The notes beneath the pieces are model-generated. The model ran no database searches, was not told the DNA's origin, and saw nothing but the letters and a program-made list of their open reading frames with translations. Below are positions 8,703-19,652 of a stretch of 64,000 nucleotides of DNA, in pieces (the first letter of the stretch is position 1; every line of letters starts with the position of its first letter). Where the stretch lies: NCBI GenBank assembly GCA_963771175.1, contig CAVYSY010000011.1:1-64000 (forward strand), in the 5' to 3' direction. The stretch is from an uncultured delta proteobacterium. GTDB taxonomy: Bacteria > Myxococcota > Myxococcia > Myxococcales > Myxococcaceae. The position numbers and the translations under genes were made by a program.

Positions 8703-8806
8703 GCCGGTAGGCCGAGGGCATGGCTCCCCGCTCGCCGTGTGGAGACCGGAGCGAAATGGGGTCTGTTGGGAACTGAAAAAGAATGCATGCGCGTTCGAGT
8801 GACACC

Positions 8807-10616
8807 ATGCAGAGCCCTTCGAGCGCCCACGGGCACCTCCGCCGCAGCGTGACCTACATCCGCCCGTTCCGGTTCTCCGTCTTCGCCATCCTCGTGCTGG
8901 TGCTGCTCAACGGGGGCATCAACGCGCTCGAGCCGCTGGTGCTCAAGCACATCTTCGACTCGCTGGGCAGCGAGGGGAGCGTGCGGGCGGTGGTGCTGGG
9001 CGTGGCGCTCCTGCTGGGCGCGGGGGTGGTGCGCGAGGGCCTCACCGCGGTGAGCAACTGGCTCACGTGGCGCACGCGCATCGGGGTGCACTTCTCGCTG
9101 ATGGAGCAGGTGGTGGGCCGGCTGCACCGGCTGCCGCTGAGCTTCCACCGCGAGGAGGGCGTGGGCGCCACCCTCACGCGCCTGGAGCGCGGCATCCAGG
9201 GCTTCGTCAGCGCCGTGCACGAGATGGCCTTCAACGTCATCCCCGCTGCGGCCTACCTCCTCATCTCCATCACCATCATGGTGAAGCTGGACTGGCGGCT
9301 GGCGCTGCTGGCGCTGGCCTTCGCGCCGCTGCCGGTGCTCATCGCCCGGAGGGCCGCGCCCGTCCAGGTGGCCCGCGAGAAGACGCTGATGGACCGCTGG
9401 GCGAAAATCTACTCGCGCTTCAACGAGGTGCTCTCCGGCATCGTCACGGTGAAGAGCTTCGCCATGGAGGAGTGCGAGAAGCAGCGCTTCCTCACGGAGG
9501 TGCGCGAGGCCAACGGCGTGGTGACGCGCGGGGTGGGGCAGGACTCGGTGGTGACCGCGTCGCAGAACGGCGTGGTGCTGCTGGCGCGCGTGGCGGCCAT
9601 CGCCTTCGGCGGCATGCTGGCGCTCAAGGGCGAGGTGACGGTGGGCACGCTGGTGGCCTTCCTCGGCTACGTGGGCGGCCTCTTCGGGCCCGTGCAGGGC
9701 CTGAGCGGCGTGTACCGCACCCTGCGTACCGGCTCGGTGGCCATGGACCAGGTCTTCGGCATCCTCGACGCGCAGGACCACCTGGGCGACGCGCCGGATG
9801 CGAAGGAAGTGACGCAGGTGCACGGTGAGGTGTCCTTCGAGAACGTGCACTTCTCCTACTCGGCCAACACCGACAAGCCGCTGCTGCGTGGCATCGACCT
9901 GCACGTGCGCCCCGGCGAGAACATCGCCCTGGTGGGCCCCAGCGGCGCGGGCAAGAGCACGCTGATGGCGCTGCTGTGCCGCTTCTACGACCCGACCCTG
10001 GGCTCCATCCGCATCGACGGCCAGGACCTCCGCGGCCTCAAGCAGCTGTCGCTGCGGCGCAACATCGGCGTGGTGCTGCAGGACGCACTCCTCTTCAACG
10101 AGAGCGTGCGCAACAACATCGCCTACGGCCGGCCGGACGCCTCCATGGACGACATCATCGCCGCCGCCAAGGCCGCGCACGCGCACGACTTCATCCTCGC
10201 GCCTGCCGCAGGGCTACGACACGCTGGTGGGCGAGCGTGGCAGCCGGCTCTCCGGGGGCGAGCGCCAGCGCGTGGCCATCGCCCGCGCGCTGCTGAAGGA
10301 CCCGCCCATCCTCATCCTCGACGAGCCCACGAGCGCGCTGGACGCCGAGAGCGAGGCGCTGGTGCAGGAGGCCCTGGGCCGGCTGATGAAGGGCCGCACC
10401 ACCTTCGCCATCGCCCACCGCCTCTCCACGGTGGTGGACGCGGACCGCATCCTGGTGCTCAAGAACGGCCACATCGTCGAGGAGGGCAACCACGCGCAGC
10501 TCCTGGCGCGCAATGGCTACTACGCCTCCCTGGTGCGAAGGCAGACGCGAGGCCTGCTGCCCGACGGGCCGCTGCTCGCCGCGCCCCAGCCGAACAAGTC
10601 CGCCTCGGCGGCCTGA
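8807..10616 (+). CDS. ABC exporter, fused TMD-NBD (MsbA-like); one frameshift near 10195
   Basis: TM domain, Walker [11 protein letters not shown]-loop; LSGGERQR and [12 protein letters not shown] continue in another frame (ORF 10227-10616). Confidence 0.9.
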
Positions 10617-10673
10617 CGCCCCAGGTGCCGCCCGCGTCGTGCAGTTCAAAACGGGGGCTCCGGCTTGCTCCGG

Positions 10674-10738
10674 TGGTAGATGTCTACCAGTGGTGTGGGC
10701 GTACCGACCACCTGTCAGTGGTAGACGTCTACCACTGA
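10674..10738. repeat. Palindromic repeats, family B (two copies)
   Basis: TGGTAGATGTCTACCA at 10674-10689 and perfect TCAGTGGTAGACGTCTACCACTGA at 10715-10738. Confidence 0.8.
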
Positions 10739-10852
10739 GGTCGGCTGGAGGCCGCATGGAGGAAAGCGGCTTGAGGGCGCGGGTCCGCTCGAATTCCGGG
10801 GCAGGCGCGGGGAGGGGTGTAGCCTGCGCTCACGCCTTCGAGGCCGCTCCCC

Positions 10853-13800
10853 ATGAGGACTCCCGCCTACCTCTCCGCCGTGCTGGTGGTGGCACTGGCC
10901 GCGTCCTCCGCCCCGGCGCAGGAGGGGCGCTTCGACGTGCAGGCCCTCCGGCCGCTGGGCGCGCCCCAGGATGTGGTGGCGGTGGGCCAGTCCCGTGCGC
11001 TGTCGCCCCACTCGGTGTCGGCCGGGGCCTTCCTCCACTTCTCGCTGGAGCCGCTGGTGCTGGTGGCGCGCGGCAGCGACGTGAAGGCGCTGAGCGTGGT
11101 GGGATCGCGGCTGCAGTTGGACCTGCTGGCCTCGGTGGGGGTGATGGAGGGAGTGGAGGTAGGCCTCACCGCGCCGCTGGTGCTGGCACAGGGCTCGGAC
11201 AACCTGGAGGCCCTGGGCACCGAGGGCGCGGTGCGCTCCTTCGCCCTGGGAGACGTGCGCCTGCGCGGCAAGGTGGTGGTGCCCGGGCTGAGGCGGCGAG
11301 CCGAGGACTCGGGGTGGGGCGCCGCGCTCACCCTGGGGGTGGGGCTGCCCACGGGCACGCCGGAGGCCTTCGCCGGAGAGGGAGCCCTCACGTGGACGCC
11401 GGGCGCGGTGGTGGACTACCGCTTCGACTCGGGGGCGCTGCTGGCCCTGGACGCGGGGCTGTGGCTGCGCCCGACACATGAGTTTCTCGGTGTGCGCTGG
11501 GGGAACGCGGCGACGCTGGGGCTTGGGCGCGGAGGTGCCCATTGTGCGCGGCCTGGGGGTGACGGCCGTGGGCACCCTCACCGGCAGCACGCCGCTGGAG
11601 GGGTGGAGGGCAGGGGCGCGGCAGGTGCCCGTGGAGGGGTTGGTGGGGCTGCGCTGGTACAGCCCCACGGGCCTCACCTTCACGGTGGGGGCGGGAGGCG
11701 GGTGCGGCTGCTCGCTGACGGCGCCCACGCTGCGCCTCGTCTCCTCGGTGGTGTGGGTGCCCTACCGGAGCACCGAATGGCATGCGCTGGAGCGCTACAA
11801 GCAGCCCCCGCACCAGCAGCCGCAACGGCCTCCCGCCCCACCTCCCGCCGCGCCCGTGGACGCGGACGGAGACTCCGTCATTGGAGCGGCGGACAGGTGC
11901 CCGGAGGAAGCGGGGCCGGTGGAGAACGGGGGCTGCCCGGACGCGGACGAGGACGGGGACGGGGTGGTGGACAGGCGGGACGCGTGCCCCCGCCACGCGG
12001 CGGGCCCCCGAGGGCGCGAGGGTTGCCCGTGGGTGCGCCTGGAGGCGGGGCACCTGGTGCCACTGGAGCCGGTGCGCTTCGCCACCGGACAGGAGGTGCT
12101 ACGGCCCGAGGCGCTGCCCCTGGTGGAGGAGTTGGCGGCGCTGCTGCTGGCCCACCCCGAGGTGCAGCGCGTGCGGGTGGAGGCCAGCGCGGACACGGCC
12201 ACGAGCGAGGCGCTGGCCCTGTCGCGGCGCCGGGCCGCCCGAGTGCGGCGCCACCTGCTGGAGCGCGGCGTGGCCGAGGAGCGGTTGTGCGCGATGGGCC
12301 GGAGCGGCGTGGAGGGAGAGGCGGGCCAGCGCCTCGCCTTCGTCGTGGAGCCGCCGACAAAGGGCCCGCCGCCGCCCTGTCCCGGCGAGGCGAGCACCGG
12401 CACCTCACTTCCAGCCGAGGTGCTGGAGGGGACGAGGGAGGTACACGCCGGGGCGTGGAAGGCGGTGCGCGGGCTGAAGCGGACAGGCGCGTGGCTGGCG
12501 CTGGGCCTGCGGGTGGAGGGCGAGCGGGTGCGACTGCTGGGTGTACAGCGGCACGAGGGCACGGGCGCGGAGGCGGGCCCGGTGGAGGCGGAGGACTTCC
12601 GCCACCTGCTGGAATGGGCCCTGTACCGCTACGCGAGGGGGCAGAAAGGCGAGGTGGTGCTGACGCTGCGGCGGGGCGAGGGCGTGTGGCTGGAGGAGGT
12701 GGAGTCCACCGGCCCGGTGCTCGTGGCCACCGCGCCCCAAGCCCCCTACGAGGCCTTCCTGCGCCAGCAGGGGGAGAAGCTCCAGGCGCTCTCCGAGACG
12801 GCGCGGCAGGAGGGCCGCACGGCACTGAAGAAGCTGGAGGGCTGGCTGCTGCTACAACCGGAGGCGGCGCTGGAGAAGGCCCCCTCGCCCCTGGATCGCT
12901 ACGTGGCGCTGCTGGAGGAGGAGAAGCAGCGCGAGGTGCGCTGGCAAGCCGTGCAGCGCAAGCTGGCCGAGTACGAGGCGTGGGGCAGGGCGTTGCTGGA
13001 CACCTACGCCCCGCCCGCGCGCTACCTGGAGCCGGGCTACCGCCTCACCGAGTCCCCCCTGCGCGAGCGCTCCGTGTGGGCCCTGGGCAACGCCACCCTG
13101 GCCTGGGCCTACGCCCACACCGAGGACCCGGACTTCCTGAAACGCAGCCCCGAGGAGGTGGCCCTCTACCTGCTGGCCAGCCGCTCCGCGCTGGCCACGG
13201 CGGTGCACCTGGGCCGTCTGGCGCCGGTGGAACTCGACTACAACGAGGCCTTCGACCCGGAGGTGTACACCGCCGAGGAGTTGGCGGTGGAGCTGCTGGT
13301 GGGCCTGACGCCGGGGGCGGGCGAGGTGACGGACGCCCACGCGGCCTTCTCCGGCCACAGCCTCTCGGGCCACCGACTCACCGACACCGAGCGGCTGGTG
13401 TGCGCGGTGGGCGTGCTGGTGCCCTTCGTGGGCGGCAGGGCGTTGCTGGAAGCGGGCGAGGAGGGCGTGCAGCGACTCGCCCTGCTCACCGGCCGGGGCC
13501 TGGACGAGGTGCGGGTGCTCTCGCGCGTGGCCGCGCACCTGTCGCCCGCGGACGCGAAGGAGATGGAGCGCCTGCTGGCGGCGGCCTCCAAGGGCCACTC
13601 CTTCAGCGAGGAGGAGGTGGAATTCCTCCAGCGGGTGGCACGTGGGCTGGAGGCGCCACTGCGAGAGGCGGCCCGGTCCCTGCGAGAGGGACAGAAGGTG
13701 ACGCTGCTGGGGGTGCGCACGCTGCCGGACGGGAGCCGACTGCTGCCGGGCACTCCCGCGCACAAGGCGCAGCGGTGGGTGGACTACCAGTTCCGCCACC

Positions 13801-14267
13801 CGGAGAAGTACCGCCGCTTCTCCTTCCAACCGGACGCGGAGTGGGAGCGCATGTATGAAACCATCCTCAAGAACCGGCCGGCGGGCAACGCCTTCGAGGA
13901 CGCCATCCTCCAGGCCCACAAGTACGAGCGCAACAGCGCGATGCTGATGCCGCCACCGGGCAGCGGCGCCCAGGGCTTCATTCCCGACGCGGTGAAGGGC
14001 AACCCGGCGGACCTGGTGTGGGGCCAGCCCTACCCCTTCGTCGAGGCCAAGGCTCGCAAGGAACTGTCCTTCTCCGGAAATCTCAAGGCCATGATTGAGT
14101 ACGTGGAGAAGTACGGTGGCCATCTCGAATTCTGGGTCCGCTCCGCCCGGCATCCCGATGGAGCAACACGTCTTTCAGGACCGCTCCTCCAACGCTTGGA
14201 TCGCTTGAAGAGATCTGGCAGGGCAAGCGTGAAGGCCGTACCCATGATGCACATCCTCACACCATGA
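10853..14267 (+). CDS. TraB/OmpA-like outer-membrane protein fused to a pre-toxin TG domain and a C-terminal PD-(D/E)xK nuclease-like toxin; one frameshift near 11525
   Basis: Signal peptide, beta-strand-rich region, TSP3 repeats (DADGDSV..ADRCP, DEDGDGVVDRRDACP), OmpA_C (VRFATG, LSRRRA), PT-TG-like (LLVGLTPGAGEVTDAHAAFSGHSLSGHRLTDTER), nuclease motifs GNAFE / IPDAV / FVEAK. Confidence 0.75.
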
Positions 14268-14297
14268 TTCACGCACTCAAAGCTCCAACCGCCCGCA

Positions 14298-15103
14298 ATG
14301 CCCATCAAGTATTTCGACACCCATATAAGTCTTCCTCCCGAACCACCTCACGGGAGAACACGTGAGAGAGTTCCTTGACCTCGTCCTTCGCAGGTATCGG
14401 TGGTTTGAAGCGAGACGCTATGGCATGCCGACCTGGACAAACCGATCGACCCGGATCGTCTCGACCTCAACCCACTGGTCGCCTATTTCGAGGAGCGCCA
14501 CTACCTGTGCGTCGCCGCCAAGACAGATAGGGACTTCATCTGGTTCTCGCCCGCTCCCGCTGACGCTCCGCCCTACGTAGGCGACAATCTCCTGGACGAC
14601 CTCCGCCAGTTCGGCGTCCAAAGCCTCCTGGCGTGCAGCCCATGCGCAGCAGGTGGCCGAGCTCATGCGCCTCGTCCAGTCTCCTCTGGCTCTGGCCGGG
14701 TTGGATACGGACCTCCACTCCAAGCAGCGGCGGCTCATTCCCAAGAGCATTCCCATGGAGGGAGGAAAGGACTTCACCTACTCGGAACAGGTAGTTCACC
14801 GTGCGCGACTACAGTGAAGGACTCCCGGGGCTCGTCTGGCGCAACTTCTACGGGCCGCCCTTCGTGCGCATGTTCGGCGAGCGACTCAATACGCTCCCTC
14901 CCGAATGCCGCCAGCCGCTCGGCGAGGACATCGTCCTCGTCCAGCCCTACAAGCTGCCCGCCGAGGCCGGCACCGAGGCGGGTATTGCTCGGGAGCGTGA
15001 GCTCATCTCCCTGCTCGGCCCCGAGTGCTTCTACGACCACGAGCGCCTCACCCTGCCCACCCGCCGCCCCGTACTGGACGCGCTCGGCCAGCCTCTTCAT
15101 TGA
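14298..15103 (+). CDS. Putative immunity protein (about 4 frameshifts)
   Basis: Joined frames: MPIKYFDTH../VREFLDLVLRRYRWFEARRYG/..YFEERHYLCVAAKTDRDFIWF../..AHAQQVAELMRLV../VRDYSEGLPGLVWRNFYGPPFVRMFG...; lies directly after the toxin tip. Confidence 0.6.
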
Positions 15104-15324
15104 TAAGTGTCCACTGGTGTGAAAAGGCACTGCCCTCCAGTGCGTGTACGTACAGGCATCCACTCCCCGATCAAAAGCACCCTGCCTAGCTTGGGCTTCC
15201 AGAGTTGCTGCTGGATTTCCCGACCACGCGGGACGGCCGGAGTTTCCGGGCACCACGGGCTTTCGTTGGCGGGAAGGCGGTGGACGGTGTTTGGCGAGAG
15301 ATACCTGCGCACGGCGGAGGGGCA

Positions 15325-16446
15325 ATGAAGGGCAAGCACATCCTCATCACGGGTGGGGCGGGGTTCATCGGCTCGCACCTGGCGGACCAACTGATTGAGC
15401 GAGGACACCGCGTCCGGGTGCTCGACTGTCTCCTGCCGCAGGTGCATGGCGAGGGCCAGCGCCGGCCGGACTACCTCCACCCGGATGTGGAGCTGTGGGT
15501 GGGCGACGTGCGCGACCCCGAGGCCGTCCGTCAGGCGTTGGAGGGGGTGGACGCCGTCTACCACTTCGCGGCGGCCGTCGGCGTGGGCCAGAGCATGTAT
15601 GAGATTGCCCACTACACGTCGGTGAACAACATGGGCACCGCGGTGCTGCTGGAGGCGCTGATGAAGCGCCCGGTGCAGCGGCTCGTCGTGGCCTCCAGCA
15701 TGAGCGTGTACGGCGAGGGCCTCTTCCGCACCTCGAGCGGGCAGCTCGTGCCGGGCACGGACCGCACCCGCGAGCAGCTCCAGTCGGGCCAGTGGGAGCT
15801 GCTGGACGCCAGGGGCAGTCCGCTCTACCCGGTGCCCACGCCCGAGGCGAAGCAGCCGGCGCTCTCCTCCGTGTACGCGCTCTCCAAGTACGACCAGGAG
15901 CGCCTGTGCCTCGTCTTCGGCAAGGCCTACAACATCCCCACGGTCGCGCTGCGCTTCTTCAACGTGTACGGCCCGCGCCAGGCGCTCTCCAACCCGTACA
16001 CCGGCGTGCTGGCCATCTTCGCCTCGCGCCTGCTCAACGACAAAGCGCCCCTCATCTTCGAGGACGGCTACCAGCAGCGCGATTTCGTCAGCGTGCATGA
16101 CATCGCGCGTGGCTGCCGGCTGGCCCTGGATGCGCCCGCGGCCGCCGGGGGCGTCTTCAACATCGGCAGCGGCCATCCCGTCACGGTGCGAGAGGTGGCG
16201 GCTCATGTGGCCGAGGTCATGGGCAAGCCGCACATCCGTCCCGAGGTGACCGGCAAGTACCGCGTGGGTGACGTGCGTCACTGCTTCGCGGACATCTCGC
16301 TGGCCCGCGCGGTGCTCGGCTACGAGCCCCAGGTCTCCTTCCACCAGGGTCTGGCCGAGCTGGCCGGGTGGCTCGAGGGGCAGGTGGCCACGGACCATGT
16401 CGACGAGGCGCGCGCGGAGCTGGAGCTCAGGGGGTTGACGGTATGA
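15325..16446 (+). CDS. NAD-dependent epimerase/dehydratase (dTDP-L-rhamnose 4-epimerase-like)
   Basis: TGGAGFIGSH, VGVGQSMY, SSMSVYG, YALSK, NVYGP. Confidence 0.9.
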   Translation: MKGKHILITGGAGFIGSHLADQLIERGHRVRVLDCLLPQVHGEGQRRPDYLHPDVELWVGDVRDPEAVRQALEGVDAVYHFAAAVGVGQSMYEIAHYTSVNNMGTAVLLEALMKRPVQRLVVASSMSVYGEGLFRTSSGQLVPGTDRTREQLQSGQWELLDARGSPLYPVPTPEAKQPALSSVYALSKYDQERLCLVFGKAYNIPTVALRFFNVYGPRQALSNPYTGVLAIFASRLLNDKAPLIFEDGYQQRDFVSVHDIARGCRLALDAPAAAGGVFNIGSGHPVTVREVAAHVAEVMGKPHIRPEVTGKYRVGDVRHCFADISLARAVLGYEPQVSFHQGLAELAGWLEGQVATDHVDEARAELELRGLTV

Positions 16447-18491: not shown

Positions 18492-19652
18492 CGCCGTACC
18501 TGCCCGCCGCGGAGGTCCGCCGGGTGCTGATGACCGCCGACACCGTCGGCGGGGTGTGGACGTACGCACTGGAGCTGAGCCGGGCACTGGCGACCCGCGG
18601 TGTGTCGGTGACCCTGGCCACCATGGGCTCGCCCCTCTCCGAGGCGCAATGGGCCGAGGCCCGCGCCGTCCCCGGACTCAGCGTCGAGCAGAGCACCTGG
18701 CAGCTGGAGTGGATGGATGACCCCTGGGAGGACGTGAAGGCCGCCGGGGACTGGCTGCTGGAATTGGAGGCGCGCGTCCAGCCCGACGTGGTGCACCTCA
18801 ACGGCTACTGCCACGGCGCGCTGCCGTGGAAGCGCAAGCCGCTCATGGTGGGCCACTCGTGTGTCCTCTCGTGGTGGGAGGCGGTGAAGGGGGAGCAGGC
18901 CCCGGAGCGTTACTCGCGCTACCGCTGGGAGGTGGCGCGGGGCCTGCGCGCCGCCGGCCATGTGGTGGCCCCCACCGCCGCCATGTTGCAGGCCCTGGTG
19001 ACGCACTATGGGCCGCTGCGCTCGGCGGGTGTCATTTCCAACGCTCGCCGCCCCGAGGACTTCCCTCCCGGCAATGTGCGCGAGCCCCTCATCCTCGCCG
19101 CGGGCCGGTTGTGGGACGAGGCGAAGAACGTGTCCGCGCTGGAGGCCGTGGCGCCCCGGCTGGACTGGCCGGTGCTCGTGGCGGGCGATACCCGAGCACC
19201 CCTCCGGCGGCGTGGTGCGCTCGCGCTGCGTGCGCATGCTGGGCAAACTGTCGCCGAGAGAACTGGCCAGACACATGGGCCGCGCCTCCGTCTACGCCCT
19301 GCCCGCGCGCTACGAGCCCTTCGGCCTGTCCGCCCTGGAGGCCGCGCTCGCCGGGTGCGCGCTGGTGCTGGGGGACATCCCCTCCCTGCGCGAGGTCTGG
19401 GAGGACGCGGCCGTCTTCGTTCCACCAGATGACACCGACACGCTCATGCGCGCCCTCCGACGGCTGGTGACGGAGCCCGTGCTCTGCAATCGGATGTCCA
19501 CCCTTGCACGGACGCGTGCATTGCGCTTCTCCCCAGAGCGCCAGGCGGATGCCTACCTTGCGGCGTATGCCTACCTTGCGGCGTATGCCGAGCTGGACCG
19601 TTCGTCCAGGGAGGCCCCTCCCGCCCCGCCCCAACTGGCGAGCGCGACCTGA
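18472..19652 (+). CDS. Glycosyltransferase family 4 (frameshifts near 18510 and 19195)
   Basis: TADTVGGVW, AGRLWDEAKN, then YEPFGLSALEAALAG and GDIPSLRE in another frame. Confidence 0.85.
19549..19589 (+). repeat. 18-bp in-frame tandem duplication (AYLAAY x2)
   Basis: ATGCCTACCTTGCGGCGT x2 followed by ATGCC. Confidence 0.9.

Follow-up and report, generated by a model that had tools for sequence, protein, structure and literature searches.

Can a toxin of the kind that myxobacteria pass between touching cells be held in the outer membrane by a protein barrel in place of a lipid? This question is raised by a locus at positions 10853-15103 of a 64,000-nucleotide stretch of DNA (the window; GenBank assembly GCA_963771175.1, contig CAVYSY010000011.1, positions 1 to 64,000) from an uncultured delta proteobacterium of the Myxococcaceae. 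A preliminary description, made from the letters alone, had read there a gene that joins a protein like the outer-membrane protein TraB to a nuclease toxin, with an immunity-like gene behind it. TraB consists of a signal peptide, a barrel, TSP3 repeats and an OmpA domain and has TraA as its partner, according to excerpts of PMC12045341. The toxins of outer-membrane exchange, SitA, are given in excerpts of PMC8546572 and PMC10433427 as lipoproteins that carry an escort domain and end in a nuclease. We found that the fusion of the two is real and recurrent. We also consider it somewhat probable that the locus is a toxin-immunity cassette and that its product is an outer-membrane-anchored, contact-delivered nuclease toxin using outer-membrane exchange. 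In what follows G000 is the window's own assembly (58 contigs, 82% complete), other G numbers are other genomes, P numbers are database proteins, L numbers are loci, and X1 and X2 are public sequencing runs.

Two overlapping open frames on the forward strand make up the toxin gene at 10853-14267. The frame of 10853 gave a sensible protein until ...GNAATLGLG (11501-11527), and the open reading frame (ORF) 11478..14267, of 929 amino acids (aa), took over with AEVPIV from 11529 and continued to the stop codon. Intact orthologues read GNAATLGLGAEVPI unbroken across the 11528 region, and base 11528 was missing in the contigs of two relatives' public runs (depth 53/53 in X1 and 8.98/13.9 in X2). Because the relatives' contigs are without that base, we regard the gene as whole except for one extra base, and the single frameshift that had been proposed near 11525 could be placed precisely at 11528 from the run contigs and the orthologues. 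In the translation of the window the OmpA-like domain and the toxin tip are joined without a stop or a change of frame, in line with the earlier claim that no shift separates the two. Continuity over 12300-12450 was also found, at least in a relative, where the contig of run X1 bridges the junction and covers 12124-12589 with 0 gaps. The parts of the product follow each other as signal peptide, TraB-type barrel, two TSP3 repeats, degenerate OmpA-like domain, escort region of ~300 aa, PT-TG pre-toxin segment and toxin tip (Table 1).

Homologues were collected as the 120 best matches of a search over 5.8 billion proteins. Besides the window's own product (n = 1), they comprised 11 proteins with barrel, OmpA and the same tip (P0002-P0007, P0009, P0068, P0070, P0073 and P0079), one with a partial barrel and the tip, 78 with the same cargo and no barrel, 27 TraB-like proteins without the tip and two truncated proteins. 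A lipobox was present in 44 of the 78 by our own pattern, and the 27 divided into 26 stand-alone proteins (533-570 aa) and one 599-aa protein ending within the escort region. The intact fused orthologues had 1086-1131 aa and came from independent sources; the named relatives were Archangium species. A query spanning the junction gave one continuous match in 3 of 18 genomes of the genus, once each in G000 and G092 and three times in G015. Two circumstances would fit an assembly chimera that joined an OmpA-family gene to a toxin gene, namely the indel problems of the assembly and the multi-copy nature of the toxin family. However, the same junction was seen in 11 + 1 independent database proteins, in all three G015 copies and in G092, and a public-run contig crosses it; we regard a chimera as highly improbable. 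The database names of the fused proteins are 'OmpA-like' or 'pre-toxin TG domain-containing'.

Table 1. Features of the toxin-immunity locus and its upstream element (window positions).
Feature	Position	Strand	Basis
Paired element of ~130 bp with two 14-bp palindromes GGTAGAyGTCTACC, ~45 bp apart	10645..10771 (palindromes 10675-10688, 10720-10733)	+	
Toxin gene, one reading after allowing one extra base	10853-14267	+	ORF translations and relatives
Signal peptide of signal peptidase I type, SSAPA/QEGRF	10853..10918	+	Aligns with TraB signal peptide and conserved start Q(D/E)xRFDVQ
First barrel part, frame of 10853	10919..11527	+	NF033763 positions 3-218, 317.8 bits
Extra base C, +1 shift of frame	11528	+	Base absent from relatives' contigs
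Remaining barrel, frame of 11478, ends SSVVWVPY	11529..11765	+	NF033763 from position 204
Proline-rich linker and two TSP3 (calcium-binding) repeats	11790..12032	+	Pfam TSP_3 residues 153-174; alignment with TraB proteins
OmpA-like domain and C-terminal TraB tail, degenerate relative to stand-alone TraB	12033..12401	+	Pfam OmpA
Escort-like region, alpha/beta subdomain then long helices	12414..13283	+	AlphaFold2 model, predicted local distance difference test (pLDDT) 83.7
PT-TG pre-toxin segment	13284..13442 (residues 603-655)	+	Pfam PF14449, 20.6 bits
Helical linker and toxin tip, stop codon after	13443..14267	+	Conserved residues, AlphaFold2 model
Nuclease-like core of tip	13884-14264	+	Conserved residues, fold matches
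Candidate immunity gene, ~267 aa, ATG 14298 to stop 15103, broken	14298..15103	+	Homology to intact downstream ORFs
Frame segments of the candidate immunity gene, then stop codon	14298-14339, 14362-14424, 14439-14582, 14587-14787, 14795-15100	+	

The anchor is a TraB paralogue nested within the TraB family. Its two halves matched the NCBIfam TraB model NF033763 over positions 3-515 of 522, with 317.8 bits for positions 3-218 and 362 bits for positions 204-515 (315.5 + 364.6 bits on repeat scoring). The curated cut-off of 700 was reached neither by the window (~680 summed) nor by the intact P0002 (666). Signal peptide, barrel, TSP3 and OmpA-like domain stand in the same order as in TraB, and Pfam OmpA scored 33.4 bits (cut-off 27.2). 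The first barrel part was 59-69% identical to 25 stand-alone TraB-type rows (533-570 aa) and 56% identical to P0117. A maximum-likelihood tree of the TraB part was made from 52 rows and rooted on two distant barrel/OmpA proteins from the same genome. All 14 fused copies formed one clade (Shimodaira-Hasegawa-like approximate likelihood ratio test, SH-aLRT, 100), and a second tree gave 15 of 15. The sister group of this clade consisted of 30 stand-alone TraBs from genomes of the Archangium/Cystobacter type, with other stand-alone TraBs branching further out, and the stem of the fused clade was long (0.46). The TraB-like N-terminus of the preliminary description is thus supported more strongly than was claimed, since the fused copies nest inside the TraB tree. 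The signal peptide has zero cysteines, hence no lipobox, and the protein is therefore not a lipoprotein; together with the match to the TraB model this agrees with the barrel-bearing, non-lipoprotein toxin that had been described.

The ratio of nonsynonymous to synonymous substitution rates (dN/dS) was computed against L021, the G015 copy. It was 0.23 for the first and 0.36 for the second barrel part and 0.47 for TSP3 and OmpA. The escort region had 0.58 in its first and 0.42 in its second half, and the tip had 0.24. Barrel and tip are under purifying selection, and because of the low values the barrel appears to be maintained, not decaying. The OmpA-like domain is degenerate in comparison to stand-alone TraB. 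In alignment A3 the 17 stand-alone rows all keep HTD…N.(D/E)LS.RRA…G.G…P(10 aa)NRR(V/I)EF, single substitutions allowed, whereas in each of the 11 fused rows the 10-residue loop is missing or motif residues are altered; the window retains the D and RRA. Particular residues of OmpA domains matter for cell-wall binding. The OmpA scores of P0202-P0205 were 54-108 bits, as compared to 33.4 in the window. P0202 and P0203 (1215 and 1243 aa) were also considered as toxin fusions and were rejected, their OmpA domain standing at the C-terminal end. The same position is seen in the TraA-TraB read-through frames of L024 (G060:C564) and L025 (G017:C18), from one genus in which no stop codon separates traA from traB and gene callers give 'TraA-TraB' proteins of 1215-1243 aa.

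In all cases examined in PMC6372800, as far as excerpts of that paper go, traB overlaps traA in one operon. The fused gene is not beside traA and has an ABC-transporter gene as upstream neighbour. Canonical TraB above the model cut-off co-occurs with fused genes in G015 and in G007, the latter from another genus. A sharper version of the exchange reading, with which it stands in no contradiction, says that the fused paralogue still binds TraA and replaces TraB in some exchange complexes, which would put the toxin on the fusion machine itself. The place of the fused clade inside the TraB family agrees with this, as do the 59-69% identity of the first barrel part to 25 of the 26 stand-alone rows at a dN/dS of 0.23 and the presence of fused gene and canonical TraB together in G015 and G007. 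Excerpts of the preprint PMC12045341 add an AlphaFold model that puts TraA atop the TraB barrel, and report that a TraB lacking the OmpA domain still gives foci and adhesion together with TraA, yet fails to support exchange. However, the position of the gene behind an ABC transporter and away from traA, and the long stem of the fused clade (0.46), speak against it, and the many lipid-anchored derivatives described below suggest that any outer-membrane anchor suffices. We hold this version to be unlikely.

The cargo behind the anchor has three parts. The escort region was present in 11 of 81 genomes and in 7 of 51 genera of Myxococcaceae (protein query), and it was not found with protein and profile queries in G048 and G069, the top two TraB-model genomes. 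It had no match in Pfam or NCBIfam, and its Atlas scores were at most 0.77. Excerpts of PMC8546572 give six named SitA families in Myxococcus, defined by their escort domains. Set beside those families by description only, the escort region may be a further SitA-type family. Pfam placed PT-TG, the second part, over the PT-TG-like segment that had been put at ~13290-13440 (Table 1), and in the relatives P0135 (40.5 bits), P0093 (38.3 bits) and P0134 it scored above the cut-off.

The third part, the tip, carries the motifs GNAFED (13884-13901), FIPDAV (13977-13994) and FVEAKAR (14037-14057), which confirms the positions given earlier for GNAFE, PD and EAK. In a 26-sequence alignment (residue 1 = window 13443) E152, E201 and K203 were invariant and D182 was present in at least 90%, so the tip family conserves the pattern E…D…ExK of PD-(D/E)xK type. 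The AlphaFold2 model had a mean pLDDT of 81.8, with mostly >87 in the final ~170 residues. Pfam had no model for the tip at E<=10, phmmer found no meaningful match among PDB sequences, and Foldseek had no match at E<=0.001, its top row being the EndoMS nuclease (E 0.15). VIA-align was run against 48,161 chains, of which the best 50 rows were considered. Among these, all six rows centred on residues 147-274 were nucleases or nuclease-like, with Z 4.3-5.4: the LlaBIII nuclease domain (4xqk, Z 5.4), AF1548 (1y88, 5.2), SfsA (4dap, 5.2), a Pyrococcus repair endonuclease (2vld, 4.8), VC1899 (1xmx, 4.5) and Can2 (8bao, 4.3). We take these six structures to be PD-(D/E)xK enzymes. Because the Z values are low by VIA-align's own yardstick, a restriction-endonuclease fold is likely, not proven. 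The PD-(D/E)xK tip of the preliminary description fits the invariant residues and the weak but consistent fold matches, and the modelled tip is likely to have a PD-(D/E)xK-type nuclease fold.

The family of the tip is small, with 84 representatives at E<=0.001 in an exhaustive search among 1.84 billion proteins. Tox-REase-7 (PF15649) lay over the tip of the relative P0145 with 22.5 bits, below the cut-off of 25. We scanned the N-termini of 24 long tip relatives and found eCIS_core in 15 and Poly_export in 6, which indicates that the module of PT-TG and tip is used with several N-terminal ends. In P0093, P0104, P0126, P0127 and P0134 it ends proteins of ~1100-1330 aa that also bear eCIS_core and Poly_export (Wza-like), another unusual anchor.

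The cargo is homologous to lipoprotein toxins. The C-terminal ~650 residues of the window protein were 72-79% identical to the closer Archangium/Vitiosangium proteins of ~530-680 aa (P0010-P0059) and 48-69% identical to distant cargo relatives, including a Hyalangium protein. A lipobox signal peptide opens many of the short relatives, and the family has several copies per genome, some in tandem. At G000:C46:288784-293474 the toxin family is represented by two lipoprotein-type copies in tandem, of which the second is fragmented. Three kinds of short protein were distinguished. The common type has 'PRLAFALESPGTGPLP' directly after the lipobox, which aligns with the last OmpA-like strand and the TraB tail. 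A second type retains the OmpA helix ('ALAH.R.AT…HLL'), and a third retains the TraB signal peptide and QEGRFDAQ. Alignment began at residue 288 or earlier in 36 of the 78 barrel-less relatives. Because such domain fragments make sense only as leftovers, the direction of change appears to have been from fused to lipid-anchored, several times. In a FastTree tree of the cargo (69 rows) fused and short forms were interleaved, and its well-supported branches force at least four changes. Judged from these sequences, fused and lipid-anchored forms seem to have switched at least four times; recombination between the fused and short kinds would produce a similar tree picture.

Homologues with the same N-terminus and a different C-terminus were looked for in the size range 622-1980 aa, the query being the TraB-like part of P0002. 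This yielded P0206 (1153 aa), whose first 522 residues were 50% identical to P0002 and whose remaining ~630 residues were not alignable with the window cargo. P0206 was sister to P0068 within the fused clade (SH-aLRT 98). Its C-terminal 624 aa led to a family of 398 proteins (E<=1e-5) of 640-750 aa in Archangium, Hyalangium, Vitiosangium, Pyxidicoccus, Corallococcus and Myxococcus. Of five members examined, four had a lipobox cysteine in their signal peptide, while the fifth begins at the cysteine motif. This second cargo family was present in 5 of 5 genomes checked, including G048 and G069. Because P0206 carries an unrelated cargo, the TraB-like part behaves as a constant delivery domain with exchangeable cargo. 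As a further candidate for a second fusion G000:C52 was rejected, where a distant barrel/OmpA gene has its own stop and is followed by a lipoprotein remnant of the second cargo family. That locus (L045, G000:C52:89500-98500) holds in series a gene whose DUF11/Cys-rich product has a MYXO-CTERM-like end, the barrel/OmpA gene and the truncated second-family lipoprotein, an arrangement from which a fusion could arise.

These cargo data also bear on a reading in which the barrel is a general outer-membrane anchor unrelated to exchange, and the toxin leaves through vesicles or proteolytic release to hit prey or competitors in general. The occurrence of PT-TG and tip behind eCIS_core (15/24) and Poly_export (6/24) N-termini indicates a cargo that is not tied to one route, and the degenerate OmpA motifs and the failure to find traAB in the 82%-complete assembly would fit as well. 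Yet of all the barrel/OmpA proteins that these genomes encode, it is specifically a TraB paralogue that serves as the anchor, and the two unrelated cargo families found on it are both otherwise multi-copy lipoproteins with the layout of exchange toxins. A general anchor of this kind seems improbable to us.

Downstream of the toxin gene a conserved ORF was found at six loci (the window, C46a, C44, C18, L021 and L022). Its intact counterparts, of 253-267 aa, lie directly 3' of toxin genes at L022:4023-4823(-), L021:5118-5918(-), G000:C44:108505-109263 and G000:C18:4836-5612. In the window the gene is broken by four frame changes, near 14340-14362, 14424-14439, 14582-14587 and 14787-14795. The homologous pairs thus support the claim of an immunity-like gene after the toxin; the 100-aa ORF 14801-15103 that had been taken for this gene is the C-terminal third of the broken gene of ~267 aa. 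The immunity protein had no Pfam or NCBIfam family, apart from a weak OST-HTH match below the cut-off, and its Atlas rows were hypothetical proteins, with TsiV on 18% of one cluster as a mere lead. After the first C46 copy the immunity gene has four indels alternating in sign; one frame is open over most of its length, and the start codon lies in another frame.

We compared ten conserved neighbours of the cassette with their G088 orthologues, and two of the ten were split between frames, a rate of roughly one per 7 kb. The ABC-transporter gene (8783-10738) was split near 10150-10200 (8804-10147 in frame 2 and 10203-10604 in frame 3 in comparison to G088), and the gene at 18515-19550 near 19200. 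These two split genes, together with the 82% completeness in 58 contigs, suggest an indel-prone assembly, and the one shift in the 3.4-kb toxin gene fits the flanking rate. Among public sequencing runs none matched the window's own sequence over the full stretch, and the best shared 0.41 of the sampled words.

The frameshifts could also be real, which would make the cassette a decaying pseudogene, non-functional here, with true shifts at 11528 and in the immunity gene. One shift in the toxin gene and four in 0.8 kb of immunity gene, against about one per 7 kb in the flanks, point in this direction, as do the location of the indels outside homopolymer runs and the intact immunity genes of other same-family copies in the genome (C44 and C18). 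On the other hand, two of ten conserved flanking genes are shifted too in an assembly that is only 82% complete, and from one shift to the next the sequence is still well conserved and contains no stop codon. Moreover, the dN/dS values of 0.23-0.58 indicate selection until recently, and the paralogous immunity gene C46a is similarly damaged, as expected from a poor consensus of multi-copy DNA. The four immunity shifts may come either from poor calling of a multi-copy region or from true decay of the immunity gene. Taken together, the frameshifts are more likely assembly errors than decay, and we consider a decayed cassette doubtful, though a possibility of some weight.

The cassette is an insertion. 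It sits between the ABC-transporter gene and an epimerase gene, and in G088, G059 and G085 these two genes adjoin each other. Homology to G088 ends at window position 10593 and restarts at 15316. Because the flanks are contiguous in these three genomes, the toxin-immunity pair is a strain-specific insertion. The G+C content drops from about 0.74 to 0.58-0.64 over 13750-14750. The palindrome of the upstream element (Table 1) occurred at 2 sites (4 over both strands) as compared to 0 expected in 100 shuffles. A further copy of the paired element stands before an unrelated TPR/DUF3857/transglutaminase gene (G000:C31:71469-71593), which indicates that the element is not specific to toxin genes, and a single palindrome copy lies at G000:C32:207266-207279. 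The element is possibly an operator or promoter region for some regulator. A promoter and terminator scan of 10550-15400 gave 0 promoters and 0 terminators.

From this layout we infer toxicity, delivery route and processing as follows. The signal peptide would direct the protein to the periplasm, and the barrel would insert in the outer membrane of the producer with the escort-toxin part on the periplasmic side. Once TraA and TraB have fused the outer membranes of two cells in contact, the anchored toxin, or a fragment cut near PT-TG, would pass to the neighbour. The escort region would carry the nuclease across the inner membrane, and producers of the ~267-aa immunity protein would survive. 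The barrel would thus fill the role that the lipid anchor has in SitA-type lipoprotein toxins. We read it in this way because the anchor is specifically a TraB paralogue, because it has been exchanged repeatedly with lipid anchors, and because the two cargo families are otherwise lipoproteins.

Several findings weigh against delivery by outer-membrane exchange or against single parts of the cassette. Two Pfam scores were below their cut-offs in the window, TSP_3 just so (24.8 bits; cut-off 25) and PT-TG more clearly (20.6 bits; cut-off 23.5). No fold was recognised for the escort region, with Z 6.5 as the best VIA-align value (short helical pieces) and no Foldseek match at E<=0.001, and the fold matches of the tip were weak (Z <= 5.4). 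The four shifts in the 0.8-kb immunity gene exceed the flanking rate, so real decay is possible. None of the listed runs matching the stretch was recorded as RNA. Neither TraA (model NF033759, and G015 TraA as query) nor canonical traB was found in the 82%-complete assembly. The known toxins of outer-membrane exchange are lipoproteins, as stated in excerpts of PMC8546572. Furthermore, TraA-mCherry was not transferred in the work excerpted from PMC5562445, whose authors suspected cell-wall binding by the OmpA domain of TraB. By analogy, an OmpA-bearing barrel might likewise remain in the producer; the degenerate OmpA motifs of the fused clade weigh against such retention.

In comparison to known systems the window protein combines features of several. 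It shares with TraB the order of its parts, the match to the whole NF033763 model and the placement inside the family. However, it scores below the 700-bit cut-off, is not in a traA operon, has degenerate OmpA motifs and carries a C-terminal extension of ~620 aa, made of escort and toxin, that is absent from the aligned stand-alone TraBs. The layout of SitA and SitI, with an anchor, an escort of a few hundred residues, a nuclease and then an immunity gene, is also the layout of the window locus, where the immunity gene is broken. As with SitA, the cargo family has many copies per genome on variable islands, and 44 of its 78 barrel-less relatives have a lipobox. Unlike SitA, the window protein is without a lipobox and is anchored by a barrel that stems from the exchange machine itself; moreover, the window-type escort was not found in G048 and G069, and NCBIfam gave no SitA-type match. 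Like PT-TG and Tox-REase toxins it has a PT-TG segment, scoring below the cut-off in the window, before the tip, the pattern E…D…ExK and an immunity gene after the toxin. It differs from them in a tip without a Pfam match, in the small size of the family and in the constant pairing of PT-TG and tip behind variable N-terminal anchors. The specialised ('evolved') VgrG and PAAR effectors of type VI systems carry a toxin domain on a paralogue of one of the structural proteins of a contact-dependent delivery machine. The fusion is alike in principle, whereas the machine and the membrane topology differ.

Our literature search, which took in excerpts of PMC8546572, PMC5562445, PMC6372800, PMC12045341, PMC10433427 and PMC12390754, found no description of a TraB-toxin fusion; the paper defining the SitA families, or its supplements, may mention one. 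Among the polymorphic toxins of myxobacteria the fused proteins form a variant that is real, occurs repeatedly and has apparently not been described before; its delivery part comes from the exchange machine itself. The database names under which they are filed conceal this fused architecture.

In the literature on exchange, to the extent of the excerpts consulted, TraB figures purely as a component of the machinery, one that is not transferred itself. A toxin family built on a TraB paralogue suggests that integral barrel proteins can travel by exchange, or at least by the outer-membrane route. The swapping between fused and lipid-anchored forms provides a natural handle on cargo choice and release, and the fused family offers an origin story for one lineage of exchange-type toxins. 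It is even conceivable, though unlikely, that the TraB paralogue is a carrier of interchangeable cargoes that still docks with TraA, and that at least one large SitA-like lipoprotein family in Archangium-type myxobacteria descended from it by repeated loss of the barrel. If this is true, the toxins of kin discrimination and the exchange machine would share an evolutionary origin.

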